Shown: positions 14,932 to 44,258, counted from the first letter of the stretch. The stretch is 64,000 nt of DNA from an uncultured Planctomycetales bacterium (GCA_964622545.1 CAZUQM010000022.1:40080-104079); one strand, 5' to 3'. Notes: generated by a model not told the origin, from the sequence alone. Numbers and translations are program-made.

Positions 14932-17145
14932 TCAACAAGTGTCGGTTGATTCTTCGGGTCCTTGATCTGTCGACTGAGGCCCCGCACCGGCCAACCCGAT
15001 CGGAACGCCGCTCCGCAGGCTCTCCACCGCCCGGATCGTCGCCAGGCAGCTCGCGACCGATTGCTCGAGCGGGATCGGGTTTTCGCCGCCAGTTCTGATC
15101 GCGTCGATCAACGAGCGCAGTTCGCCGGTTTGTCCCTTGTCGCCCGGCAGCTTGATCTCGCGCTGCGAGCCGCCGCTGACGGCCGTGGCGGTGCGGAAGT
15201 CCTCGTTGATGAAGATCCGTCCGTCGCCGATGACCTCGACGCGTTCCTTAGGGTATGACTTGTCACCGCCGGACAGATACGCCACGCTCGCGACCGATCC
15301 GCTGGCCAGCCCCATCGTGATCATCGCGTGGTCCTCGGGCACCTCGGCCGCACCGCTGGCCACGCACTGGGCGTAGATCGTCTGCGGCAAGCTGCCGTCC
15401 AGGAAGCAGGCCAGGTCGATGAAGTGGCAGGCCTCGCCGATGATCCGCCCGCCGCCTTCTTGCGGGTCGTACGTCCAGTGGTCGATCGGTAGGGGCCCGG
15501 CGTTGCAGCGGTAGCTGATCGCCAGCGCTCCGTGCGACGGGCCGATGTGCGCCAGCATCTCGCGCGTCATCGGCGCGAACCGTCGGTTGAACCCGACCAT
15601 CGCGATGCGGCCGGTCTCACGCTGTGCCTCGAGCACCGCGGCCAGGCCGTCCTCCGTGATCGCCAGGGGCTTCTCGACGAAGACATGCTTGCCGGCGCGA
15701 AGCGCCTGCGCCGTCAGCACCGGATGCGTGTCGTGACGCGTCGCGACGATGACCAGGTCGATCGCCTCGTCGGCCAGCACCTGCTCGGCCTCGGTCGTGC
15801 AGTACCCGAAGCCGAACTTGTTGCCCTTGTGCTGACCCGACGGTCCGGTCGCGGTGGCCAGGCCCACCAGCTCGACGTCGTCCATCTTCGCCAGCAGCGG
15901 CAGCAAAACCGACGTGGCATACAGCCCCGCCCCGATCAGGCCGATCCGCACGCGATCGCTTCCCCGGCCGGTGGCGGCCTTCGTCGGTGTCAGGTCGAGC
16001 CGATCGCGGACCGTCACCTCCTGCGGATAGCGCAAGAGCACGCCCATCCCGCGCTGCTCGGCCGCTACGTCGTCGCCGAGAATCGCGTACGCCTGCTCGG
16101 CCTGCTCGGCGTCGAAGCGGTGCGAGATCAGCGGCCTGACGCTCAGCTTGCCCTGCGACATCAGGTCGATCACGCAAGCCATGTTGCGATGAATCGTCCA
16201 CGGCACGTACGCCTGCGGGTAGTCGATGCCCTTCTCTTCGTAGTTCGCGTCGTGCCGCCCGGGTCCGTAGGCCATCGACATCCGCAGCTCGAGCTCGCGA
16301 TCGTAGAACGGCCGGCGGTCGAGCGCCATGCCGAAGTCGCCCACGCCGATGAGGCGCCCTTTGCGTCGCGATAGGGCGGCCGCCTGGTTCACCGGCTCGC
16401 TGCTCTTCGTGGCCGCCGTCACGTAGACCGCGTCGGCGCCCTGCTCATGGGTGAACTCGGCGCAGGCGGCGTCCAACTCGTCCGGCTCGACGGCCCTCTC
16501 AATGCCGAGCTCGAACGCGAGCCGCCGCCGCGACGGATCGGGGTCGCTGCCCAGCACATGACACCCGGCCGCGGTGAGCATCTGGTGCAGCATCTGCCCG
16601 ACCAGGCCAAGCCCGATCACGATCACACGCTCGCCCAACTCGGGTTTGCCGATCCGAAGGCCCTGCATCGCGACCGAGCCGACGCACGCGAAGCAGGCCT
16701 CCTCGTTGCTGACGTTGTCGGGCAGTCTGACCAACAGGTTCCTGGATACGAACACCATGCCCGCATGCGTGGCGAACCCGCCGCCGCCGCAGGCCACGCG
16801 ATCGCCGGCTTGCACGTCGCGAAGGTCGTCGGTAACGGCCACAACCCGACCCGCGCTGCTGTACCCGAGCAGCAGCGGCTGGTCGAGCCGGCTGAAGGCC
16901 GCACCGAGCGCCGCCCGCAGACCGTCGCGCCGCACCTTGTTTAGGAACTGCTTGACCAGATCCGGTCGCTGTCGCGCCTTGCCGATGAGCGACTTCTTGG
17001 CCAGCTCGATGACGTCCTTCTCGGTGCCGGCCGAGATGAGCGAGAACTCGGTGTGCACGATCGCGCCGGGACCGCGGATCGCCGGTGCGGGGACCTCCTC
17101 GACGGTCATCTTGCCGGTGCGCCAGTTCTGGACGATCTGCTTCAT
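14932..17145 (-). CDS. Bi-domain oxidoreductase: zinc-type alcohol dehydrogenase (MDR) fused to a Gfo/Idh/MocA domain
   Basis: 737 aa. The N-terminal half is MDR-like (GLGLVGQ Rossmann motif). The C-terminal half is Gfo/Idh/MocA-like (IGLIGAGLYA, VFVEKP). Confidence 0.85.
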   Translation of the reverse strand: MKQIVQNWRTGKMTVEEVPAPAIRGPGAIVHTEFSLISAGTEKDVIELAKKSLIGKARQRPDLVKQFLNKVRRDGLRAALGAAFSRLDQPLLLGYSSAGRVVAVTDDLRDVQAGDRVACGGGGFATHAGMVFVSRNLLVRLPDNVSNEEACFACVGSVAMQGLRIGKPELGERVIVIGLGLVGQMLHQMLTAAGCHVLGSDPDPSRRRLAFELGIERAVEPDELDAACAEFTHEQGADAVYVTAATKSSEPVNQAAALSRRKGRLIGVGDFGMALDRRPFYDRELELRMSMAYGPGRHDANYEEKGIDYPQAYVPWTIHRNMACVIDLMSQGKLSVRPLISHRFDAEQAEQAYAILGDDVAAEQRGMGVLLRYPQEVTVRDRLDLTPTKAATGRGSDRVRIGLIGAGLYATSVLLPLLAKMDDVELVGLATATGPSGQHKGNKFGFGYCTTEAEQVLADEAIDLVIVATRHDTHPVLTAQALRAGKHVFVEKPLAITEDGLAAVLEAQRETGRIAMVGFNRRFAPMTREMLAHIGPSHGALAISYRCNAGPLPIDHWTYDPQEGGGRIIGEACHFIDLACFLDGSLPQTIYAQCVASGAAEVPEDHAMITMGLASGSVASVAYLSGGDKSYPKERVEVIGDGRIFINEDFRTATAVSGGSQREIKLPGDKGQTGELRSLIDAIRTGGENPIPLEQSVASCLATIRAVESLRSGVPIGLAGAGPQSTDQGPEESTDTC

Positions 17146-33736: not shown

Positions 33737-33776
33737 TTGACAGCGTCCCGAAGTTAGGGTATTGTTTGATACCTAA
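33737..33776 (+). promoter_or_regulatory. Strong candidate promoter (TTGACA-N17-TATTGT) overlapped by an inverted repeat (candidate operator)
   Basis: TTGACA at 33737-42, a 17-nt spacer, then TATTGT at 33760-65. The inverted repeat is TTAGGGTAT (33754-62), a 6-nt spacer, then ATACCTAA (33769-76). Confidence 0.5.
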
Positions 33777-34484
33777 CATTCGAAGAACAGCGCCCGGGTC
33801 CGTTGGCGCGGACGGTCGGGCAGGTGGAGATCGCGGCGTCCGAAGTGGGCGTGATCCCGCCAGGTCGAGGCGGGGGGCTCTTGGTTGTTCCGGCTTGCCG
33901 GAAATGGGCTGTTCTTCTAGCCGTGCCCGTGGTTGCCATGTAGCACTGCGACGGTCCTCGGCATCGTGGCCTGAGGTCATCTGCCGTTTGCTCGTCACGC
34001 TTCGTCGGCAACGCGACACGTTGTGGGTTGTCAATCGCACCATGCCGCCCGCAAGCGGCAGATGGGGTGGCCGGTGTCTTGGGACCAAGGGCACCTGCCG
34101 CCGATACGGGGAGGGTCGGGCTGACCCGGCACGTGAGGTGGCCAGGCTCTTTGCCTGGGCGTGTTGCCACTTGGCCCGGAGTGGATGGAAGCATCGATCG
34201 GAGGGTGAAGGCGGGTTCGCTACGCGGTCGGATCCGGGTCGGTCCGTCCTTGCCCCGGGCGGGGCCTCGGATGAGGACGGCCTTGTGGCTGCGGTGTCAA
34301 GCCGATGACACCCCGCAAGCGGCGCGAACCGGGCGTCCTGCGTCGGGCAGTGGCGGCCCGATCGGCGCGTAGGCACCTGAGCGGGGGTTGGCTTGTGGGC
34401 CGCCTGGCGCGGCGCACACGCCGGCAGGACTCGGCGTTCGGGTCTTGTCGGTCTCATCGAGGACCAAAACGGAGGTCGCGGACC
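33777..34484 (+). other. Long apparently non-coding, GC-rich leader or candidate structured RNA between the promoter and lexA
   Basis: All ORFs here are Arg/Gly/Cys/Trp-rich with atypical third-position usage. Many local hairpins occur, including two copies of CCCGCAAGCGGC. I saw no RNase P, tmRNA, SRP or tRNA signature. Confidence 0.3.
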
Positions 34485-35114
34485 ATGTCTCCAGCTCAAC
34501 GAGGCGTTGCCCACACCCAGCTCACACCCAAGCAGTTGGCCATTCTGACCTACTTGCGCGACTACGAACGCCAGCACGGCTACGCGCCGACCCTTCAAGA
34601 GGTCGCCGACCACTTCGAGGTCACCAAGGTGACCATCTTCGAGCATGTCAGCGTCCTCGAGCGCAAAGGCTACATCGACCGTTCCCCGCACAAGGCGCGG
34701 TCGCTCAAGCTCACCAACCAGGCCGAGTTCCCCGACGAGCGGCCCACCCGCGTGCCCTTGATGGGTCGCATCGCCGCCGGGGCCCCGGTCGAAGCCCTGC
34801 AAGACGAGCAGGCCCTGGACCTCGAGGAGATGCTGTCCGTCCGCGCAGAGACCTTCGCCCTTCAAGTCACCGGCGAGAGCATGATCGACGAGCAGATTCG
34901 AGACGGGGATTATGTCATCGTCGAACGGCGCAACACCGCGCGTAACGGCGAGACGGTTGTGGCCTTGCTCGACAGCGGTGAGACAACCCTGAAGAAGTTC
35001 TTCCGCGAGAAGGGACGCATCCGCCTCCAGCCGGCCAACGCGGCCCTCGAGCCGATCTACGTCGACGACGTCCGGATCCAAGGTGTCGTGGTGGGGGTCT
35101 TCCGCAGGTACTGA
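34485..35114 (+). CDS. lexA: LexA repressor (SOS regulator)
   Basis: GGAGG RBS then ATG at 34485. Winged-helix LTPKQLAILTYLRDYERQHGYAPTLQEVA, Ala-Gly cleavage site (RIAAGAP), and Ser/Lys dyad context (VTGESM ... TLKKF). Confidence 0.92.
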   Translation: MSPAQRGVAHTQLTPKQLAILTYLRDYERQHGYAPTLQEVADHFEVTKVTIFEHVSVLERKGYIDRSPHKARSLKLTNQAEFPDERPTRVPLMGRIAAGAPVEALQDEQALDLEEMLSVRAETFALQVTGESMIDEQIRDGDYVIVERRNTARNGETVVALLDSGETTLKKFFREKGRIRLQPANAALEPIYVDDVRIQGVVVGVFRRY

Positions 35115-36572: not shown

Positions 36573-36708
36573 GGGGCCTCCAGTCTTCGGTTATCAGGAT
36601 GCGTCACGCACGCCCGCATTGTCAATGCCGCCCTGTCGGCCAACCTGCCTGCGACGCATGACGCGTCAGGCGGGTGCCTTTGCCGCTCATCGTCCAACCC
36701 AGCGAAAT

Positions 36709-36827
36709 CGGTCGACTTCCCAGCTTCGTTGCCGCCATCGTAGACGCGACGGTGAAGGAGCGTTGCTGTTCACGTGCCCCACCACACAGCTCGCTGACGG
36801 TCGCTGCTCTGATGGGCGTCTCGCCCT
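36709..36827 (+). repeat. Copy B of a ~120-nt hairpin-forming dispersed repeat (REP/MITE-like)
   Basis: Aligns by eye over about 110 nt with the reverse complement of 44021-44140. The shared core is GACGCGAC-GT-AAGGAGCGTTGCTGTTCA...CACACAGCTC...ACGGTCGCTGCTCTGA-GGGCGTCTCGCCCT. Confidence 0.8.
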
Positions 36828-37200: not shown

Positions 37201-37271
37201 CAACCAGCTCGTTCAGCTCCATCGCTTCCTTCAAATCTCATTGTCAAGCGCAATAATTCCGACCATTTCTC

Positions 37272-37300
37272 TTGGCGCACTGCAATGTTTGGTGTATATT
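37272..37300 (+). promoter_or_regulatory. Candidate promoter (TTGGCG-N17-TATATT) for the ABC-GNAT operon
   Basis: TTGGCG at 37272-77, a 17-nt spacer, then TATATT at 37295-300, in a conspicuously AT-rich patch about 160 nt upstream of the GTG start. TTAGGGTAT follows at 37299-307. Confidence 0.45.
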
Positions 37301-37459
37301 AGGGTATCGGTCAGGACGGTATCGCCCGTAGCCTGCAGCGAACGGCGAACCCCTTCTGGTTGCAGGACAGCCCCGCCGGCCCCCGAGCCGGTGACCACGT
37401 GGGGCATCCGTTCGTATCAAACATCTCCTGAGGCGATGGACTTCGCATTGAGGTGAGCC

Positions 37460-38962
37460 GTGCCAGGTCTTACTGCGCCCGCCGAGCGCGCCCATACCGA
37501 CCGCATCGAACACCGTCGTATCCCACCGGCCGAACGCTGTGTCCGCCTCGACATCGAGCACCGACGCAGCGCCGCTCCGTGCTCGCCCAGGTCGGTGGAA
37601 GTCTGCTTCCGATACGGCATCCGGCCGGAGTCCCACACGCTCACGCTGGGCCGAGACATCCCCTTGCCGCGCGAGGCGCCGCAGGTCATCGCCGTGGTCG
37701 GTCCGTCTGGGGCGGGCAAAACCTCGCTGTTGCACGCCATCGGTCGCCGGTTCGACCATGCCCGCCACATGGGCCGCACGCGATTTCCGCGCAAGCCCGC
37801 CATCATCGACGCGGTCGCCCGCGGGCGCACGCTCCCCGAAGCCGCCTCCATCCTCACCGCCTGTGGGCTGGGCGAGCCCCGTCTCTGGATTCGTCGTTAC
37901 GAGGAGCTCTCGGACGGGGAGCGCTTCCGCGCCAAGCTGGCCAGGTCGCTGGGGCTGCACCTGCGGGGCCCCGATCCGACCGCGCCGTTGCTCTGCGACG
38001 AGTTCGCCGCGGGACTGCACCGTCGCGCTGCTCGTTCCATCGCCTTCAATCTGGCCAAGCTCGCACGCCGGCGGGGTCTCTACGTCGCCGCGGCCGTCGC
38101 CCATGAGGACCTCCTCGGCGACCTGGGTCCCTCACTCATCATCCGTCTCGGTGCCGAAGCCAACGCCGAGGCCATCTGGCCGCGGCCGGACCACGGCTTG
38201 TTCTCTGGCATCGCCCGGCTCCATATCGAGCCGGGCCGCAAGGCCGATTACGACCGCTTCGCCCCGATGCACTACCGCCGCCGCGACGAATTGGGCTTCG
38301 TCGACAAGGTCTTCGTCGCGCGCGAGGGGGTCGGCGGCGAGCCGGTCGGCATCGTGGTCTACGCTTACGGGCCGCTCGAGCTTGCTCTGCGGAATCGAGC
38401 CACGGGGGGGCGATTCCGCGGGGCGCCGAAGCGGCTCAACCGCGAGCTCCGCATCTTGCGGCGCCTCGTGATCCACCCCGACCTGCGCGGGTGCGGCGTG
38501 GGCCACTGGCTGGTTCGCGAAACCCTGCCCATGGTCGGCGTGGACTTCGTGGAATGCCTGGCCACGCTCGGCCAGATCAACCCCGTCTTCGAGAAGGCCG
38601 GCATGTCGCGGGTCGGCACCTGCCCGCCGCCCCGAGGACACCAGCGGCTCTTGAGCTGGCTGCGTCGGCAGGGGGCCGACCCCTTCGCCGCCGATTTCGA
38701 GACGCAACTCGCCGCGTGTCCGGCCGTCCAAGGCGTCGTGGCCGACGTCGTTCGCGGGTGGTACCGCGCCACCACAGGAGCCCGGCGCGACCGTGTCGCC
38801 TCGCAATCACCCCGGCTGTTGGCCCAGACCTTCCGGCAGCTCGCGTGCAGCCAACCCGTGTATTACCTCTGGCATCGCGACGGTCGACGGTTCGAGCCGC
38901 CGTCCCATCGCGACCTCGGTTCTAGGGGCACAAGCGTGTCCCCGCACCGGCAGGAGTCCTAG
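37460..38962 (+). CDS. Fusion protein: stand-alone ABC-type ATPase domain plus C-terminal GNAT acetyltransferase domain
   Basis: GTG start after GAGGTGA. Walker A GPSGAGKTS, ABC signature LSDGERFR, Walker B LLCDEF, H-loop-like AVAHE. The GNAT acetyl-CoA site is RLVIHPDLRGCGVGHWL. No transmembrane domain partner is adjacent. Confidence 0.75.
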   Translation: MPGLTAPAERAHTDRIEHRRIPPAERCVRLDIEHRRSAAPCSPRSVEVCFRYGIRPESHTLTLGRDIPLPREAPQVIAVVGPSGAGKTSLLHAIGRRFDHARHMGRTRFPRKPAIIDAVARGRTLPEAASILTACGLGEPRLWIRRYEELSDGERFRAKLARSLGLHLRGPDPTAPLLCDEFAAGLHRRAARSIAFNLAKLARRRGLYVAAAVAHEDLLGDLGPSLIIRLGAEANAEAIWPRPDHGLFSGIARLHIEPGRKADYDRFAPMHYRRRDELGFVDKVFVAREGVGGEPVGIVVYAYGPLELALRNRATGGRFRGAPKRLNRELRILRRLVIHPDLRGCGVGHWLVRETLPMVGVDFVECLATLGQINPVFEKAGMSRVGTCPPPRGHQRLLSWLRRQGADPFAADFETQLAACPAVQGVVADVVRGWYRATTGARRDRVASQSPRLLAQTFRQLACSQPVYYLWHRDGRRFEPPSHRDLGSRGTSVSPHRQES

Positions 38963-38964
38963 TC

Positions 38965-39216
38965 ATGCATCGTTTCAAGCAGGTCGTTAACTACCTTGGC
39001 AGGCCGCTCGCGTCGCGCAAGGTCCGCGTTGCGATCGCCACCGTCGTCTGCGCCTACGCCGCCCAGGCAGGCTTGATGGTCAGCGAGGAGGTGCTGATCA
39101 CGATGCTCTCCTGCGGCGTGGCCATCATTCTCGGGATCGCCCACGAGGACAACGGCCGCCATGCAGCATCCACGCCTCCGCGCGACGATACCGCCCCATC
39201 CCGCCCCCAGAGCTGA
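38965..39216 (+). CDS. Small 2-TM membrane protein (83 aa) with charged C-terminal tail (holin-like topology)
   Basis: ATG lies 3 nt after the upstream stop, with AGGAG 8 nt upstream. Basic N-terminus, two hydrophobic helices, and an HEDNGRH...RDD tail. Confidence 0.6.
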   Translation: MHRFKQVVNYLGRPLASRKVRVAIATVVCAYAAQAGLMVSEEVLITMLSCGVAIILGIAHEDNGRHAASTPPRDDTAPSRPQS

Positions 39217-39351
39217 CTCCTGCCGGCCGGGGTCCATGCCGTCACCACTGCCGCGAAACGCGGATCGGTGGTAACCTGTGCCCAAGGCTCCCGCCGGCGG
39301 TCCTCGGCGGGAACGCTGGTGCGGCTGCCGCGCCGAACGGGGATCCGAGCG

Positions 39352-40167
39352 ATGGCTGGGAACCGCGACCAATCTGCGACGATGATGCCGCCCGAGGGAT
39401 CGTGCTCGCGACCCGATGCCGTTCGCCTATTGATCCTGGTCGCCCTGGCGAGCCTCTTGCCGGTCACACCGATCGGTTGGCTCTGGGCCGTGGCCCTGCT
39501 CGCGTGGGCGGTGTTCTTTGAGGCCGTGGCGCGGCCGGTCCCGGCCAGGCTGTCCACGGCGCTGGTCCTCTGCCCGATCCTGGTCACGGCGCCGCTGATC
39601 AACCCCTGGTCGTTCTGGCCGATGCACCTGCTGGTGCCCCTGGCTGGCTGGGCGATCGTCGTCGGCACCCTCCGCCGAAGCCGGTCGAGGCCGGATCTGC
39701 CGCTATGGGGCTCCGCGGACGCCGTCGCGCTCGGGCTGGCCGTCCTGACGATCATCGGCAGCAGTGCCGCGCTGGTCGTGTGGCATCAACTCGCTCAGCC
39801 CGATCTGTCCGATCTCAAGGCCCAGATGCCGGACTGGTCACCCGGGCTCCTCGTTGTGGCCGCACTGGGGTTCGCGGTCGTCAACGCCGTGATCGAAGAG
39901 CTCATCTGGCGCGGGGTCTTCTGGCAGATTCTGGACAGAGCGGTGGGGCGGGCATGGCTGGTCATCGCCTTGCAGGCGGCATCCTTCGGCCTCGCGCACC
40001 TGCACGGCTTTCCGAGGGGGTGGTTCGGCGTGGCGATGGCCGCCGTCTACGGGACGATGCTCGGCCTGATCCGCCACCGCTCGCGCGGCCTGGGCCTGCC
40101 GACCATCACCCACGTCTTCGCCGACCTGACGATCTTCGCCATCCTGGCCACGTTGGTCAGGGGGTGA
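39352..40167 (+). CDS. CPBP family intramembrane glutamic endopeptidase (CAAX protease/Abi family)
   Basis: Motifs EELIWRGVF (EExxxR), FGLAHL (FxxxH) and HVFADL; polytopic. The start is uncertain: ATG 39352 or GTG 39268. Confidence 0.8.
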   Translation: MAGNRDQSATMMPPEGSCSRPDAVRLLILVALASLLPVTPIGWLWAVALLAWAVFFEAVARPVPARLSTALVLCPILVTAPLINPWSFWPMHLLVPLAGWAIVVGTLRRSRSRPDLPLWGSADAVALGLAVLTIIGSSAALVVWHQLAQPDLSDLKAQMPDWSPGLLVVAALGFAVVNAVIEELIWRGVFWQILDRAVGRAWLVIALQAASFGLAHLHGFPRGWFGVAMAAVYGTMLGLIRHRSRGLGLPTITHVFADLTIFAILATLVRG

Positions 40168-40179
40168 CGTCGCCGTTAT

Positions 40180-40341
40180 CAGAGGCGCGACTGTGAAGGA
40201 GCGTTGCCGTCTTCAGAGGCGCGACTGTGAAGGAGCGTTGCCGTCTTCAGAGGCGCGACTGTGAAGGAGCGTTGCCGTTCAACCGTCCACCGTGCCATTG
40301 CTCTGTGAACAGTGTGAGCCCGCCACAAGGCAACGCTTCAC
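40180..40341 (+). repeat. 34-bp direct repeat in three tandem copies, followed by a long imperfect hairpin; related to the 36.7/44.0 kb repeat family
   Basis: CAGAGGCGCGACTGTGAAGGAGCGTTGCCGTCTT at 40180, 40214 and 40248 (last copy 31 nt). GTGAAGGAGCGTTGCC (40261-76) pairs with GGCAACGCTTCAC (40329-41). Lies between convergent genes. Confidence 0.85.
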
Positions 40342-40383
40342 GCGATCGCACGCTGAGGCGGCAGGGGCACAACCGAAGGCCTC

Positions 40384-42156
40384 TTACCCCGCGAACTCGA
40401 ACACCCGCTGCTTGCGGCAGGCGCGATCGATGGCCGGCAGGAAGTAGTGCTTGGCCACCACCTCCCACGTCATCTTCTGGGCCAGCTCGTAGCCGCTGGC
40501 GATCAGCTTGGCCTTCTCGTCCGGCGAGCGGGGCAGCCGCTCGAGCAGGTCGCCGGCGACCTGCTTGGCCACGGCTACCTCGAGCTCGTCGCGATAATGC
40601 ATGTCCAGCCCGAGCAGGTGCTTGGCCGGCGGACGCGGTTTCGGGATGTCGGTGTAGTCGGCCACGATCACGTTCGGGCTCGACTCGCCGCCGGCGGCGT
40701 CATCGACGAAACCCGCGCACCCGCACACGTTGGTGATCACGCAGAGCCCACCCACCGATAGGGCCTCGAGCTGCGCGATGCCGAACGGCTCGTAGATGCT
40801 TTGGCCGAACTCCACGTCGGCGCCCTTGCGGATGTCCCAGAACTCCATGTCCTCGGGCATGCGGGCACCGCATACGGCCTGATGAAAACCGAACTGGTTG
40901 ATGAACACACACTTGAGGTTGCGCGCCCGGGCGTTGAACCGTTGGATCGACGTGTAGAAGATCGCCTCGCCCGTCGACATGTCCGGCGTACCTTCGCGGT
41001 GGGCGACGGGCCAGTCCCACCACTGCTCCATGTCGTAGATGTCCTCGGGCGGCCGGCTCGGCAGCTCGGTGTTCAAGAAGTAGCACACCCCCGTCTCGCC
41101 CGACTGCCGGAAGGCCTGCTCGACGTGCTCGAGCACCCGGATGTCCCGCCACAGACCCTTGCTCGGCGCCAGGCGCGAGACGTGCGTGAACACATGGTCG
41201 GGCTTGAAGCCCAACAGGTTGTCGCAGTAGCGGCGGAGACGGTCGCGGCTGACCTCGGCCTCGTCGACGTCGATCTGGAACGCCGGGATGCCGTTGTACG
41301 ACAGGTCGATGTCCACGTGGTCGAAGTCGGGGTCAAGGAACCGCAGCTCCTTGATCACGTAGTCGCCCACGGCCAGGATGTTGTCGCAGAAGCGGCTGCC
41401 CTCGACCAGGGCGTGTTTGAAGAAGTCATGCTGGTTGCCGAACATGTCCTCGACGTAGAGCCCTTCGCTCATCGCCTCGGCCAGGACGTTGTAGAACATC
41501 GTGTCGTGGCCAGGGTGGTCCTCGACCAGCTTGCGAACCGTGGCCACCTCGTGGGCGTAGAAGACGGTCCGGAGGTTGTCGTGGTTTCGCAGGATCGCGG
41601 CCAGGGCCGTCGGCATGCCCATGAACTCGTGGGCCACGACCACACACTCGCCTCCGGTGGTCAGGCCCAGCCCATAGATCGCGTCGATGGCGGGCATGGC
41701 CAGCTTGACGTACTGGTCGTAGTCCCAGGCGTTCTCGTACCGGTTCGACTCGATACCGAACTGGTTGAAGAGCTGGCCCTTGAAGTCGTTGAGCCGGCGG
41801 AAATCGGCCCGATGCACGTCGATGAGGACGACCTCGGCGTCGGCCTTGAAGTTGGTCGCGTCCTCATAGAAGCTTCGTCGCCCGTAGACGATGTCGACCT
41901 TGTGGTTCCGCTGGATGTCCTGCCAGAGCGACGCCGTTGGGTGGTTCAGGATGCCGTCCACCGACGAATAGAAGACCTCGCCGTCGGGCCCGAGCCGACC
42001 CTGCACGTTCCCGTCGCGCGTGAACAGCGGACCGATCAAGATCGTCCGATCGATCTGCTTGTTGTACGACTTGCTTGTGATAAGGCCTTGCAGGACGGCG
42101 CCGATACCGCCGACCTTCTGCACAGCTTCGTGTGTAACGTGGACCAGGCTTCGCAT
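40384..42156 (-). CDS. Glycosyltransferase resembling GT3 (eukaryotic-type) glycogen synthase
   Basis: N-terminal HEAVQKVGGIGAVL resembles GT3 EVANKVGGIYTVL. C-terminal EPFGIAQLEALSVGGLCVITNVCGCAGF resembles the GT3 EPWGYTPAE...TTNVSGFG block. 590 aa. Confidence 0.6.
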   Translation of the reverse strand: MRSLVHVTHEAVQKVGGIGAVLQGLITSKSYNKQIDRTILIGPLFTRDGNVQGRLGPDGEVFYSSVDGILNHPTASLWQDIQRNHKVDIVYGRRSFYEDATNFKADAEVVLIDVHRADFRRLNDFKGQLFNQFGIESNRYENAWDYDQYVKLAMPAIDAIYGLGLTTGGECVVVAHEFMGMPTALAAILRNHDNLRTVFYAHEVATVRKLVEDHPGHDTMFYNVLAEAMSEGLYVEDMFGNQHDFFKHALVEGSRFCDNILAVGDYVIKELRFLDPDFDHVDIDLSYNGIPAFQIDVDEAEVSRDRLRRYCDNLLGFKPDHVFTHVSRLAPSKGLWRDIRVLEHVEQAFRQSGETGVCYFLNTELPSRPPEDIYDMEQWWDWPVAHREGTPDMSTGEAIFYTSIQRFNARARNLKCVFINQFGFHQAVCGARMPEDMEFWDIRKGADVEFGQSIYEPFGIAQLEALSVGGLCVITNVCGCAGFVDDAAGGESSPNVIVADYTDIPKPRPPAKHLLGLDMHYRDELEVAVAKQVAGDLLERLPRSPDEKAKLIASGYELAQKMTWEVVAKHYFLPAIDRACRKQRVFEFAG

Positions 42157-42214
42157 AAAGGACTCACTCTGTACGGCGATTCTGGCTCGCTGCCACTAAC
42201 CCGGAGGGTATTGT

Positions 42215-42252
42215 ACAAATCAAACGGCCCGCCTCAACCGCGAGGCGGACCG
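42215..42252 (-). terminator. Rho-independent terminator after the EF-hand gene
   Basis: CCGCCTC (42229-35) pairs with GAGGCGG (42242-48), with extension. The minus strand continues with TTTGATTTGT. Confidence 0.5.
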
Positions 42253-42365
42253 TCGTATTGTAGGCACCGATAAGATCGGCACATGACGCGTCGGAAGCCA
42301 CAACCATGGCGCGAATTACGGTAAGGGCCCTATGCGAAAACCGCTTGCGGATTTGAGTTTTTTGG

Positions 42366-43292
42366 CTAGCCGTCCTTATCGGACGGTGCCCGCGGGGCCT
42401 TCTGCGAGCGACGTTCCCGGCCGCGACGCTCGGGGCGCTCGGGCTTGGAGGGCTTGCCGGCCTCCAACGCCGCCTTCAGGTCTTTCGCGTCCAGCACCTT
42501 GTCGTCGTTGCGGTCCAGACTGCGGAACCAGTTCAGAAGCTGGTCGATCTCCTTGCCGTCGACGCGACGGTCGTCGTTGCGGTCGGCCAGGCGCATCAGC
42601 AGAAACGCCGCCCCCGGTGGGGGATCACCCTCGCCCATGGGGCCAAGACCCTTGCGGCCTGCCATCCCCGGTCGACCACGTCCGAACGCCCCGGGCCCGC
42701 CGCGACGTCGTCCTTCGCGAGCCGCTTCGCGCAGGCCCTCGCTTGCCGACGGCGAGTCCTCCTGGCCGCGCGACCAGCCCGTCGGTGTCCCCATCCCGGC
42801 TCGTCCCTTCAGGTGGCCCCCATGGCGGCGGATCATCTCAGCACGCATGCGGATCATGGCCTTGCGCACGGCGCGGTCGACCTTGTCCTCGATCAGACGG
42901 TCCAGCGCCAAACCCAGACCGAGCCAATCCTTGAAGACCTCCGCCCGCTGTTCCGCGATCAGAGGCCCACCGGCGCGGAAGCCTCCCTGTCCAGGACGCC
43001 GGCCCCATGGGCGCCGAGTACCGTAGCCCTGCCGACCCTTGTCGGGCATCCCCCGACCCCAACCGCGCATCCGCTGACGCGCGTGTCGGACGACCTCAGG
43101 CATCTTCCGGTCGAACTCGTCGCGCGAGACGACGCCGTCGCCGTCGGCGTCGAGATGCTTGTAGACGCGATCGAGGATCGCCTCGCCGCGAGGCGGCACC
43201 TTCGTCTCGGGGCGTTCGGGCTCCGAGGCCGAGAGCGTCAGGCCGATCAGTATGGCCGGCGCGAGCAAGAGAACAGCGGTCATGGCAGTCAC
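42366..43292 (-). CDS. Secreted EF-hand calcium-binding protein, Arg/Gly-rich
   Basis: Signal peptide. EF loops DADGDGVVSRDEF, DRNDDRRVDGKEI and DRNDDKVLDAKDL. Confidence 0.75.
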   Translation of the reverse strand: MTAMTAVLLLAPAILIGLTLSASEPERPETKVPPRGEAILDRVYKHLDADGDGVVSRDEFDRKMPEVVRHARQRMRGWGRGMPDKGRQGYGTRRPWGRRPGQGGFRAGGPLIAEQRAEVFKDWLGLGLALDRLIEDKVDRAVRKAMIRMRAEMIRRHGGHLKGRAGMGTPTGWSRGQEDSPSASEGLREAAREGRRRGGPGAFGRGRPGMAGRKGLGPMGEGDPPPGAAFLLMRLADRNDDRRVDGKEIDQLLNWFRSLDRNDDKVLDAKDLKAALEAGKPSKPERPERRGRERRSQKAPRAPSDKDG

Positions 43293-43977: not shown

Positions 43978-44020
43978 TGCCTGACCACACTTGTCTTTGT
44001 GGGTTCCGATCAGGAGGGCG

Positions 44021-44140
44021 AGACGCCACTCAGAGCAGCGACCGTGAGGGAGCTGTGTTGTTGGAGCGCTTGAACAGCAACGCTCCTTGACAGTCGCGTC
44101 TCCGACGGCGGCCCCGAAGCTGGGCAACCGACAGATTCAA
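44021..44140 (-). repeat. Copy A of the ~120-nt hairpin-forming dispersed repeat, inverted relative to copy B
   Basis: Its reverse complement aligns with 36709-36827. It contains the GGAGCG...CGCTCC hairpin and the outer GAGACGC/GCGTCTC pairing. Confidence 0.8.
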
Positions 44141-44258
44141 CCGTGTTGGACCACTAGTCGGTTTCCCGGAAGATTTGGAGAAAGAGGCGCACGGCGCGTT
44201 CGCGCCCGTGCATGTCGTGGCATCATAAAGACGGGCTCTCATTGTGGGAGAAAGCCAT

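Follow-up and report, generated by a model that had tools for sequence, protein, structure and literature searches.

A conserved ABC-GNAT and small membrane protein gene pair behind a presumptive SOS-type operator in Phycisphaerae

Genes and features of the locus

The window (the whole 64-kb stretch of DNA that was analysed) carries, within a few kb of lexA, a gene for an ABC-ATPase-GNAT fusion (hereafter ABC-GNAT) that is followed by a small ORF and by a gene for a CPBP-type protease. The features relevant to this work are:

33752–33789, + strand: operator at the lexA promoter, a tandem AGTTAGGGTATTGTTTGATAC with an overlapping site on the minus strand (19.2 and 14.9 bits, the second and third scores in the window)
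34485–35114, + strand: lexA (Pfam LexA_DNA_bind, 7e-15, and Peptidase_S24, 3e-29)
37240–37254, + strand: tentative candidate for a second operator, ATTGTCAAGCGCAAT, a palindrome of the ATTGC/GCAAT type; no other sequence in the window fits this pattern
37272–37300, + strand: sigma-70-type promoter (-35 TTGGCG, 17-nt spacer, -10 TATATT)
37286–37306, + strand: tandem direct-repeat operator TGTTTGGTGTATATTAGGGTA, presumptive LexA/SOS box, with the top score of a position weight matrix (PWM) in the window (27.5 bits)
37460–38962, + strand: ABC-ATPase-GNAT fusion, 500 aa, with a GTG start behind GAGGTGA and a TAG stop at 38960–38962
38952–38956, + strand: Shine-Dalgarno sequence AGGAG for the small ORF, read from the sequence, within the 3′ end of the ABC-GNAT gene
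38965–39216, + strand: small predicted membrane protein, 83 aa, with its ATG 3 nt past the last base of the ABC-GNAT stop
39352–40167, + strand: CPBP/Rce1-like intramembrane protease (Pfam Rce1-like, E 1.7e-16), with an alternative GTG start at 39268

The ABC-GNAT protein comprises an ABC domain (residues ca. 27–245), a GNAT domain (ca. 249–390) and a conserved C-terminal helical domain (ca. 391–476). Alignment of 23 homologues showed that Walker A (G81-P-S-G-x-G-K87), the signature (L150-S-x-G) and Walker B (D180-E181) are invariant, corresponding to the ABC motifs GPSGxGK, LSxGE and DE(F), as is the acyl-CoA loop of the GNAT domain (R343-G-C-G-x-G348), a motif that aligns with the acetyltransferases YjaB and 3s6f. 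Pfam gave 26.3 bits for ABC_tran (cut-off, 25) and weak, sub-cut-off GNAT matches; seven of 12 homologues also matched Pfam GNAT families, all of them below the cut-offs. Foldseek comparisons of the AlphaFold model (pLDDT 80.9, pTM 0.78) retrieved the 'GNAT' protein (ABC plus GNAT) of Leptospira phage LE4 (E 8e-18, TM 0.72); the ABC domain matched ABC nucleotide-binding domains (NBDs; E 4e-9), the best being those of MacB/HrtA/LolD-type transporters, and the GNAT domain matched the structure of phage Mom (E 8e-6, TM 0.50 on the target) as well as NAT_SF proteins. Additionally, hhalign reported probabilities of 99.6% against phiE255 gp29 and 99.8% against Jace gp86, with the alignment running through the GNAT motif, and PHROGs 11143 (4e-29) and 886 were also matched. 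Judged by these comparisons, the protein is homologous to phage ABC-GNAT proteins over both domains; as its closest ABC structures are transporter NBDs, a role in the membrane or in transport may also hold. The neighbouring genes in the window code for a SnoaL-like membrane protein, an RraA-like protein, LexA, the small membrane protein and the CPBP protease, with no DNA-modification or ParB-like partner among them, while the genes downstream in related ABC-GNAT loci are variable and of housekeeping type.

As the earlier note had observed, the 83-aa ORF begins 3 nt after the ABC-GNAT stop and has its own AGGAG, and both coordinates were verified in the sequence. Its deduced product has a basic N-terminal helix and then two hydrophobic helices, one moderate to borderline (residues 22–40, KD 1.6) and one strong (residues 43–59, KD 2.5), and AlphaFold (pLDDT 88.8; helices at 2–15, 18–37 and 41–67) predicts a helical hairpin. 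The earlier description was accurate for the basic N-terminus and the two hydrophobic helices but not for the tail, held to be highly charged, which is rich in Pro, Ser and Thr, of moderate charge only, and the non-conserved part of the protein. Identity across the class is 47–77%, the motifs P-L-x-S-R-K-x-R and I-L-G-I-A-H-E-D-x-G are invariant, and nucleotide substitutions are dominated by the third codon position (0.56 vs. 0.16 at position 2); this pattern marks the small ORF as a genuine gene on which purifying selection acts. The family contains at least 1309 clusters, every one of them unnamed and without a Pfam domain, and the protein itself had no match in Pfam, NCBIfam, PADLOC or PHROGs.

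Relatives of the small protein are also found in Mu-like head clusters and in phage tail modules, there without the SOS motif. The gene occupies the end of the Mu-like head clusters, behind a lipoprotein gene, and in 23 out of 23 of them the small protein is accompanied by a stand-alone GNAT; decayed, head-only prophage remnants likewise keep it as their last gene. Thirteen IMG/VR viral contigs carry the small gene and, in viral contigs, this gene and that for the lipoprotein directly precede the tail-completion and tape-measure genes; in locus L123, a terminase gene is located 1.5 kb downstream of the small gene. Scanning of its neighbours in the window, the head clusters and the viral contigs revealed no lysozyme or amidase families, and a search for ABC-GNAT among the viral contigs found none. 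The suggestion of a phage-type ('holin-like') origin for the small protein is plausible in the light of these contexts.

Conservation of the gene pair and its CPBP neighbour

The small gene is located directly 3′ of ABC-GNAT in 36 out of 80 loci (34 of the 74 with room for it), always in the same direction and with 47–74% identity, and 43 of 66 small-gene loci have ABC-GNAT upstream. Linkage is not obligate, since 40 of the 74 ABC-GNAT loci have no small gene nearby and 23 of the 66 small-gene loci have no ABC-GNAT. The layout from which translational coupling had been proposed is seen in the window and in locus L004, but the gap between both genes varies from 5 to 1093 nt across loci and coupling is, therefore, not conserved. 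Directly upstream, 34 of 63 loci contain a gene for an XRE-HTH/S24 (CI/LexA-like) repressor, and 12 loci contain the CI-like repressor, ABC-GNAT and the small gene in this order; the XRE-S24 gene is absent from the window and its close relatives. These comparisons of gene order reduce the real unit to two genes, a co-directional pair that is conserved in Phycisphaerae and would form an operon.

The earlier note had described a tight three-gene module that included the CPBP gene, which does follow the small ORF, at a distance of 51 nt (from the GTG at 39268) or 135 nt (from the ATG at 39352, the database gene call), with no promoter and no convincing terminator predicted between them. By its Pfam match and its intact motifs (EExxxR, FxxxH and HxxxD), the deduced product is a bona fide member of the CPBP/Rce1-like (Abi) family. 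Nevertheless, tblastn and an HMM of 34 CPBP homologues found CPBP in none of 154 loci with ABC-GNAT and/or the small gene, and the three-gene module had to be abandoned, while the sequence features behind it stand. The CPBP orthologues are instead syntenic with the genes at the right-hand side of the window, those for glycosyltransferase GT590 (82% identity) and an EF-hand protein; in locus L235 the orthologue maintains these two neighbours and has a BNR_4-like gene upstream, and in the related metagenome-assembled genome CAYOGX the CPBP gene is on a separate contig from ABC-GNAT and the small gene. Synteny thus identifies the CPBP gene as an accidental neighbour, outside of the conserved unit and, because it is never linked to the pair elsewhere, the idea of a small-protein toxicity rescued by CPBP is without comparative support.

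The promoter, the tandem operator and the link with lexA

The consensus promoter scan yielded two sites, vs. 0.2 expected in shuffled sequences, and the layout TTGAC-N17-TATAnT is common to most of the related loci. The operator at 37286–37306 overlaps the spacer and the -10 element of the promoter, as well as TTAGGGTAT, and is organized as a tandem TGTTAGGT-N3-TGTTAGGT, with the repeats 11 bp apart; its consensus across loci, atGTTaGGT.taTGTTAGGt, overlaps the core promoter at a variable register. The tandem motif occurs upstream of ABC-GNAT in 61 of the 69 loci with enough upstream sequence, and with exact spacing in 65 out of 80, and the 2% of the sequence situated upstream of ABC-GNAT accounts for half of all its loose matches across 1.5 Mb.

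It had been pointed out that TTAGGGTAT is common to the promoters of ABC-GNAT and lexA, and it is indeed present at 37299–37307 and 33754–33762; this 9-mer match is not significant in the window alone, but the cross-genome comparison shows that it is real. A PWM trained on ABC-GNAT promoters only retrieved 62 sites in 204 kb of sequence upstream of lexA, from 45 of 70 Planctomycetota lexA loci, vs. two in the other 805 kb. Likewise, its three best sites in the window are at 37286, in the ABC-GNAT promoter, and at 33752 and 33789, one on each strand of the lexA promoter (-35 TTGACA at 33739, -10 TATTGT at 33762), whose operator is kept in L002, L238, L247, and L245. The connection to lexA and DNA damage put forward from the shared TTAGGG is upheld in that these letters are part of the tandem operator. 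The tandem TGTTAGGT motif is probably the SOS box of this clade and, from its position at lexA promoters, we infer that the operon is under the control of LexA, which, by its domains, is the canonical LexA and would be the repressor of the operon. The ATTGC/GCAAT pattern of the candidate second operator recurs at ABC-GNAT and XRE-S24 promoters, with a weak enrichment (13 of 25 palindromes; 2.3-fold for half-sites).

A putative damage-induced operon and its relation to known systems

All the parts of the operon have, in sequence comparisons, phage affinities: ABC-GNAT through its homologues and the small protein through its presence in head clusters and tail modules. The reading that we favor, which we consider evenly balanced between right and wrong, is that of a phage-derived, damage-induced two-gene operon, where a repressed sigma-70 promoter would direct the expression of an ABC-GNAT acyltransferase and of a translationally coupled 83-aa membrane protein. 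Upon activation of RecA by DNA damage, LexA, plus the XRE-S24 repressor where present, would self-cleave and the operon would be derepressed. ABC-GNAT would then dimerise on ATP and move an acyl group from acyl-CoA onto a macromolecule, most likely a DNA or RNA nucleobase, in keeping with what others predicted for such proteins and with the resemblance of its GNAT fold to Mom. The small protein would constitute the membrane arm, a helical hairpin in the inner membrane with its conserved motifs in the cytoplasm. Our preferred, if tentative, guess is that this arm could be a non-lytic brake on growth or division, of the SidA/YneA/SosA type, that possibly docks to the GNAT enzyme or is regulated by it; since the small protein also turns up among phage structural genes that lack the SOS motif, a phage role as holin or in exclusion fits at least as well. 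It is improbable that the pair is the DNA-damage effector module of the FtsZ-less Phycisphaerae, domesticated from Mu-like phages. In that case, the SOS-induced, ATP-dependent acyltransferase would mark DNA or RNA with a novel acyl group, or acylate the invariant Lys19 of its partner, the two-helix membrane protein would arrest growth or division, and the tandem GTTAGG would be a previously undescribed Planctomycetota LexA box.

Several alternatives were weighed against this two-gene operon. The locus could be a three-gene toxin/immunity or stress-triggered membrane system, with the CPBP/Abi protease neutralising or processing the small protein, as the three genes are close together and co-directional in the window, the protease has intact motifs and a strong Pfam score, and transcription could read through into its gene; however, the zero count in 154 loci already refutes it as a conserved system and the contexts of CPBP in L235 and CAYOGX also oppose it, so that we deem it extremely improbable. 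The operon could also be a cryptic or domesticated phage lysis module, a remnant of prophage induction in which the small protein would be a class II-type holin and ABC-GNAT a phage DNA-modification enzyme, permeabilising the membrane on SOS derepression to free, for instance, phage-like particles. The hairpin and basic N-terminus agree with a holin, as do the terminal position in Mu-like head clusters, after the lipoprotein gene, the terminase gene in L123 and the viral contigs, and CI-like repressors paired with SOS operators characterise the induction circuits of prophages and pyocins. We nevertheless find this explanation unlikely, because no endolysin or spanin pair adjoins the small gene in the contexts examined, the small protein lacks a dual-start motif, its class-wide identity and invariant polar motifs are atypical of holins, most of the genomes with the pair have no phage genes linked to it, the downstream genes being housekeeping, and ABC-GNAT is missing from the viral contigs.

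The order of CI-like repressor, enzyme and small membrane protein in 12 loci is also reminiscent of a phage-exclusion or abortive-infection module like lambda cI-rexA-rexB or the HK97 gp15 moron, with ABC-GNAT as a cytoplasmic sensor or enzyme and the small protein as its effector in the membrane, which, on infection, would keep DNA from entering or make the membrane collapse. This would agree with the site of the small gene and the lipoprotein gene in viral contigs, just ahead of the genes for tail completion and the tape measure, a place in which exclusion morons occur, with the retention of the small gene in decayed prophage remnants, and with a weak PADLOC match of ABC-GNAT to mad3. The operon has, however, its own repressed SOS-type promoter, expected to be off in undamaged cells, unlike the exclusion genes of lysogens; the PADLOC match is confined to the P-loop region, with no other MADS component among the three proteins scanned, and the gene is vertically conserved, in single copy, in about 150–170 species, unlike patchy defence islands, making this role improbable as well. 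Very unlikely, in our view, is a housekeeping ABC machine of the membrane, where the small protein, with its N-terminal helix as a coupling element, would be the membrane partner of an ABC-GNAT dimer acylating an envelope component or a small molecule, and SOS control would be secondary. The transporter-type ABC domain, the coupling in the window and L004, the conserved cytoplasmic motifs that flank the hydrophobic helices and the broad, vertical conservation of the pair argue for such a machine; against it, no known ABC permease is a two-helix protein, adjacency is lost in around half of the genomes, the GNAT fold is Mom-like, and the homologues of ABC-GNAT are soluble phage proteins encoded near ParB-like, exonuclease and formyltransferase genes.

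The phage ABC-GNATs (Burkholderia phage phiE255 gp29, Gordonia phage Jace gp86 and that from Leptospira phage LE4) have the same architecture as our protein and clear homology to it, although the latter is around 130 aa longer, with the conserved C-terminal helical domain, and is chromosomal and vertically conserved in Phycisphaerae. Its gene is preceded by an SOS-type operator and has that for the small membrane protein as its partner, whereas genes of the ParB-like, decarboxylase or formyltransferase kind are missing from its neighbourhood. Combinations of an ABC ATPase and a GNAT from phages and prokaryotes were predicted to acylate a DNA nucleobase (Iyer, Zhang, Burroughs and Aravind, 2013, in the terms in which PMC7824862 cites them). 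The literature surveyed contains no biochemically characterised member of the ABC-GNAT family. Mom, from phage Mu, is a GNAT-fold enzyme that acylates the N6 of adenine in DNA; the GNAT domain described here matches it structurally, without detectable sequence similarity, and Mom has no ATPase domain. The ABC-GNAT homologue from the BcepMu-like phage phiE255 sits after the tail-fibre genes, the position in which Mu carries mom.

SOS-induced small membrane inhibitors of division include SidA (Caulobacter), YneA (Bacillus), SosA (Staphylococcus) and ChiZ/DivS (Actinobacteria). The small protein is likewise a predicted small inner-membrane protein behind a LexA-type operator, here near lexA itself, but it shows no sequence similarity to them and no domain of theirs, such as LysM, contains two helices instead of one, is predicted to be co-transcribed with an enzyme, is far more conserved, and also appears in phage structural modules. 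Known small membrane proteins of phages include class II holins and pinholins (such as S21 of phage 21) and membrane morons (such as gp15 of HK97), and ours resembles them in its size (ca. 70–90 aa), its basic N-terminus followed by two hydrophobic helices, its phage contexts and a lipoprotein neighbour; conversely, it differs from them in that its gene has no adjacent endolysin or dual start, is unusually conserved and belongs, in most genomes, to the chromosomal core. The CPBP protein is a true member of the CPBP/Rce1-like proteases, unlinked to the pair in every related genome examined. We also considered the MADS defence system, where MAD6-8 are mandatory and MAD3 is accessory, because PADLOC returned partial, P-loop-centred matches of ABC-GNAT to mad3 (E 6e-13) and mad8; this candidate was rejected, as no operon with MAD6-8 was found, the small protein and CPBP had no PADLOC match and the genes on either side fall into other, unrelated Pfam families.

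Finally, the E. coli LexA motif is stated not to be recognised by LexA from Planctomycetes (PMC3108266), and the LexA boxes from Alphaproteobacteria are direct repeats, GTTC-N7-GTTC (PMC8565304). The operator described here also consists of direct repeats starting with GTT, with an 11-bp period (GTTAGG-N5-GTTAGG), at the promoters of lexA and of its putative target, whereas it differs in repeat sequence and phylum and is a putative box by motif position.

Gene content and limits of the unit

The ABC-ATPase-GNAT fusion gene (ABC-GNAT), the small gene and the CPBP (Rce1-like, Abi) protease gene occupy a part of the window with a G+C content of 66% (30–46 kb), and the closest relatives of ABC-GNAT are from Phycisphaerae (Planctomycetota).

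Features of the ABC-GNAT region (window positions; ORFs 1, 2 and 3 are co-directional)
37272–37300: promoter driving ABC-GNAT; TTGGCG (from 37272), 17-nt spacer, TATATT (to 37300)
37286–37306: tandem repeat TGTTTGGTGTATATTAGGGTA in the ABC-GNAT promoter
37460–38962: ORF 1, ABC-GNAT, 500 aa; GTG start, preceded by GAGGTGA
38965–39216: ORF 2, small protein, 83 aa; ATG 3 nt after the TAG of ORF 1, AGGAG at 38952–38956
39268 or 39352 to 40167: ORF 3, CPBP; start at GTG (39268) or at ATG (39352, the public gene call)

All three ORFs follow the GC3>GC1>GC2 pattern of real genes. Pfam searches gave an ABC_tran match and weak GNAT matches for the first product, no match for the 83-aa product, and a Rce1-like/CPBP match (E 1.7e-16) for the third. 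The earlier note had read the three genes as a tight module. What it described at the sequence level (three co-directional ORFs, the 3-nt gap, the AGGAG, and TTAGGGTAT at two promoters) is correct, although the closeness applies to ORFs 1 and 2 and not to ORF 3, which starts 51–135 nt away.

The composition of the unit was examined in 80 loci with ABC-GNAT, from 170 found in a one-genome-per-species collection, and in 74 further loci selected among 149 relatives of the small protein. Searches with the window CPBP (tblastn) and with an HMM built from 34 CPBP homologs did not detect this gene in any of the 154 loci, which rules out a syntenic three-gene order; lack of synteny elsewhere is precisely what the earlier note had said would count against its module. 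In a related genome (locus L235), CPBP is followed, as in the window, by a glycogen-synthase-like glycosyltransferase gene (82% identity to window positions 40384–42156) and an EF-hand gene, and preceded not by ABC-GNAT or the small gene, but by a gene for a 417-aa BNR_4-like protein and a MazG gene, neither of which is in the window. Positions 39352–43292, comprising CPBP, the 590-aa glycosyltransferase gene and the EF-hand gene, are a block conserved in that genome. Likewise, in the metagenome-assembled genome (MAG) CAYOGX, CPBP (L236) and the ABC-GNAT/small gene pair (L004) are on separate contigs. The neighborhoods of the CPBP orthologs, together with its absence from the 154 loci, place a synteny break between positions 39216 and 39352. 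From these gene-order comparisons we reject a three-gene CPBP system and consider the original finding real but mis-bounded; the CPBP/Abi "immunity" reading can be abandoned, sparing a misdirected experiment.

Conversely, of 80 ABC-GNAT loci, 36 have a homolog of the small gene directly 3′ of ABC-GNAT (34 of 74 if only loci extending at least 700 nt downstream are counted), on the same strand in every case and with products 47–74% identical to that of the window; reciprocally, ABC-GNAT lies directly 5′ in 43 of the 66 small-gene loci with enough room. Genomes of the Phycisphaera mikurensis type (L133) also carry both genes. The intergenic distance varies between 5 and 1093 nt; the adjacency is maintained across loci, whereas the proposed translational coupling is not. 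The unit is a two-gene, phage-derived operon that the SOS response probably induces; its anatomy and its regulation find good support in the comparative sequence data.

Several other elements were observed around these genes. A 25-nt inverted repeat with 76% complementarity (arms at 38934–38958 and 39215–39239) flanks the small ORF, its left arm holding the Shine-Dalgarno sequence and its right arm beginning at the stop codon; it may form a structure acting on translation, or be due to chance. A REP/MITE-like interspersed repeat occurs at 36692–36827, upstream of the ABC-GNAT promoter, at 40168–40285, as three tandem 34-nt units immediately 3′ of the CPBP stop codon, and, inverted, at 44015–44151 (44.0–44.15 kb); spurious ORFs across it read "...DATVKERCCS...". 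The 887-nt intergenic region between a SnoaL-like membrane protein gene and ABC-GNAT contains a match to the Acido-Lenti-1 sRNA (Rfam RF01687; 36932–36977, minus strand; 40.1 bits, gathering score 37), and no riboswitch or known RNA was found by Rfam in the ca. 150-nt ABC-GNAT leader. In the cultured Phycisphaerae bacterium RAS2 (L331, CP036352.1), an IS1595-family transposase gene is located 80 nt upstream of ABC-GNAT, a single GTTAGG repeat is left and the small gene is not adjacent.

Promoter, candidate LexA operator and repressors

The region upstream of ABC-GNAT shows the same layout in most loci, with TTGAC and TATAnT separated by 17 nt, plus two copies of TGTTAGGT in direct orientation, which are 11 bp apart and extend over the -10 region or the initial bases of the transcript. 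Of the 69 loci with 300 nt or more upstream of ABC-GNAT, 61 have a loose version of the tandem-repeat pattern there; both strands of 1.5 Mb yielded 145 matches in all, half of them within these short upstream segments. In the window, TTAGGGTAT is present at 37299–37307 and at 33754–33762, with a third copy, at 15248, inside a coding region. The earlier note had pointed to sequence shared by the ABC-GNAT and lexA promoters; statistics within the window alone did not show the 10-mer to be significant.

The 65 ABC-GNAT promoter sites served to derive a 21-nt weight matrix, with which 80 independent lexA loci from Planctomycetota were searched (threshold, at least 12 bits). The scan retrieved 62 sites within 1.5 kb upstream of lexA, on either strand and in 45 of 70 loci, versus 2 sites in the remaining 805 kb, which bears out across genomes the similarity between both promoters. 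The sites preceding lexA are typically 350–800 nt from the gene and have the consensus tGTTAGGTntaTGTTAGGt, with an 11-bp period. In the 64 kb of the window, the ABC-GNAT promoter scored highest (27.5 bits), followed by the lexA promoter, with a hit on each strand (19.2 and 14.9 bits); the fourth hit reached 10.0 bits. About 720 nt separate the lexA promoter (33739–33789) from the lexA start codon downstream, with a leader spanning 33767–34484; many relatives have a conserved small ORF (…LGPGGD…PPVIFGSLSAYL.EEWTD) between this promoter and lexA.

lexA is a classic case of autoregulation; the direct repeat is most simply read as the putative LexA operator of Planctomycetota, and ABC-GNAT, with the small gene where present, as a member of the SOS regulon. 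The arrangement (GTT-N8-GTT, 11-bp period) is similar in form to the alphaproteobacterial box GTTC-N7-GTTC (PMC8565304), and PMC3108266 says no more than that LexA from Planctomycetes does not use the Escherichia coli motif. A limited literature search yielded no description of the tandem repeat as an SOS box of Planctomycetota; the GTTAGG repeat is proposed as a candidate LexA box of the phylum, and can be tested as such. A palindrome, ATTGC-N-GCAAT (window 37240–37254), recurs at ABC-GNAT promoters and at those of the repressor gene described below, is weakly enriched, and is tentatively considered a second operator.

A gene for a protein of ca. 221 aa precedes ABC-GNAT by ca. 100 nt, on the same strand, in 34 of the 63 loci with enough upstream sequence. 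Its products contain HTH_31/HTH_3 and Peptidase_S24 domains, which point to self-cleaving repressors of the CI/LexA/PrtR type (XRE-S24), and are 64–73% identical to the member from locus L006; XRE-S24, ABC-GNAT and the small gene appear together in 12 loci. The window contains no XRE-S24 gene and has canonical lexA (LexA_DNA_bind plus S24; 34485–35114) 2.3 kb upstream of ABC-GNAT, as also found for lexA in the related locus L002. The same MAGs carry both XRE-S24 (L006, L062, and L014) and canonical LexA (L247, L239, and L248), indicating coexistence of the two S24 repressors and not replacement.

The small protein and its phage contexts

Two motifs are invariant in the small protein: P-L-x-S-R-K-x-R precedes the first hydrophobic helix, and I-L-G-I-A-H-E-D-x-G follows the second. 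Nucleotide differences among 37 small genes were 0.28, 0.16, and 0.56 for codon positions 1, 2, and 3, respectively, and on this conservation we consider it a real gene product. AlphaFold modeled helices at residues 2–15, 18–37, and 41–67 (pLDDT 88.8), with strong hydropathy for residues 43–59 and borderline for 22–40. Clustering at 90% identity divides the family into at least 1309 clusters, which are all annotated as hypothetical and lack Pfam domains, and searches against GenBank phages gave no match for the small protein.

Away from ABC-GNAT (23 of 66 loci), the small gene is usually the last of a compact Mu-like head cluster with the order Portal_Mu, stand-alone GNAT, Mu protease I, scaffold, gpT major head protein, gp36 adaptor, two small proteins, helical lipoprotein and small protein; 23 of 23 such clusters contain the stand-alone GNAT. 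These clusters, from other Planctomycetota (L157–L180 and L194), lie between host genes, contain neither terminase nor tail genes, and carry a conserved promoter motif of their own, TCTAGA..CTA..GCTATGCT; a search for a promoter motif common to them and the ABC-GNAT operon was negative. They could represent a decayed prophage lineage or a domesticated capsid system. Mu-like prophages from other phyla share with them the scaffold and gpT, and lack the lipoprotein and the small protein. A second arrangement, in locus L114 and several of 13 IMG/VR contigs, comprises, in this order, the lipoprotein, a 63-aa protein, the small protein, a 150–166-aa protein and a tape-measure protein, and in locus L123 the small gene is 1.5 kb upstream of the terminase gene. 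The window contains no Mu-like head genes, and ABC-GNAT was not found in IMG/VR viral contigs.

These contexts indicate that the small protein is of phage type, with a GNAT alongside in two independent contexts; its candidate roles are holin, exclusion factor, division brake and acyltransferase partner. This family, with more than 1300 clusters and neither name nor domain model, connects a host SOS operon with remnants of Mu-like phages.

The ABC-GNAT enzyme and related systems

The Walker A (G81-P-S-G-x-G-K87), the ABC signature (L150-S-x-G), the Walker B (D180-E181) and the GNAT acyl-CoA loop (R343-G-C-G-x-G348) are invariant in 23 ABC-GNAT homologs. AlphaFold gave a confident model (pLDDT 80.9, pTM 0.78), which displays an ABC domain (ca. 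27–245), a GNAT-like alpha/beta domain (ca. 249–390) and a helical C-terminal domain. Among PDB structures, the ABC domain resembles nucleotide-binding domains of transporters of the HrtA, MacB and MJ0796 type; among viral models, the best match was a two-domain "GNAT" protein from Leptospira phage LE4 (E 8e-18, TM 0.72 on the target), and the GNAT part also matches a phage Mom protein (E 8e-6). By tblastn, the ABC half was matched in 76 phage genomes and the C-terminal half in none, while profile comparisons extended homology through the GNAT motif to gp29 of phiE255 (99.6% probability) and gp86 of Jace (99.8% probability), and PHROG 11143 and 886 together span the whole protein.

Three other identities were discarded. 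For MADS or another known defense system, PADLOC gave no more than partial matches centered on the P-loop, to the MADS components mad3 and mad8 and to AriA, and it detected no other MADS component among the scanned proteins. A GNAT toxin-antitoxin system of the TacT/AtaT type has the wrong architecture, since the protein is a 500-aa ATPase fusion without an RHH antitoxin; and a canonical ABC transporter is at odds with the lack of an adjacent permease gene in every locus. [quoted passage not shown] We infer that the operon would be derepressed during the SOS response, that ABC-GNAT would acylate nucleic acid or its partner protein, and that the small protein would act on the membrane.

So far, DNA base acylation by this family is a computational prediction only; a large, vertically conserved branch with a defined promoter, a probable DNA-damage signal and a fixed small-protein partner opens it to experiment. 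The phage homologs are set among DNA-metabolism genes: that of the BcepMu-like phage phiE255 follows the tail-fiber genes and precedes a formyltransferase-like gene, and that of Jace follows a ParB-like gene and an exonuclease gene and precedes an aspartate decarboxylase gene. Compared with these phage members, the ABC-GNAT from the window has an extra C-terminal domain and lacks DNA-modification neighbors, and it is paired with a membrane protein under a putative control of SOS type.
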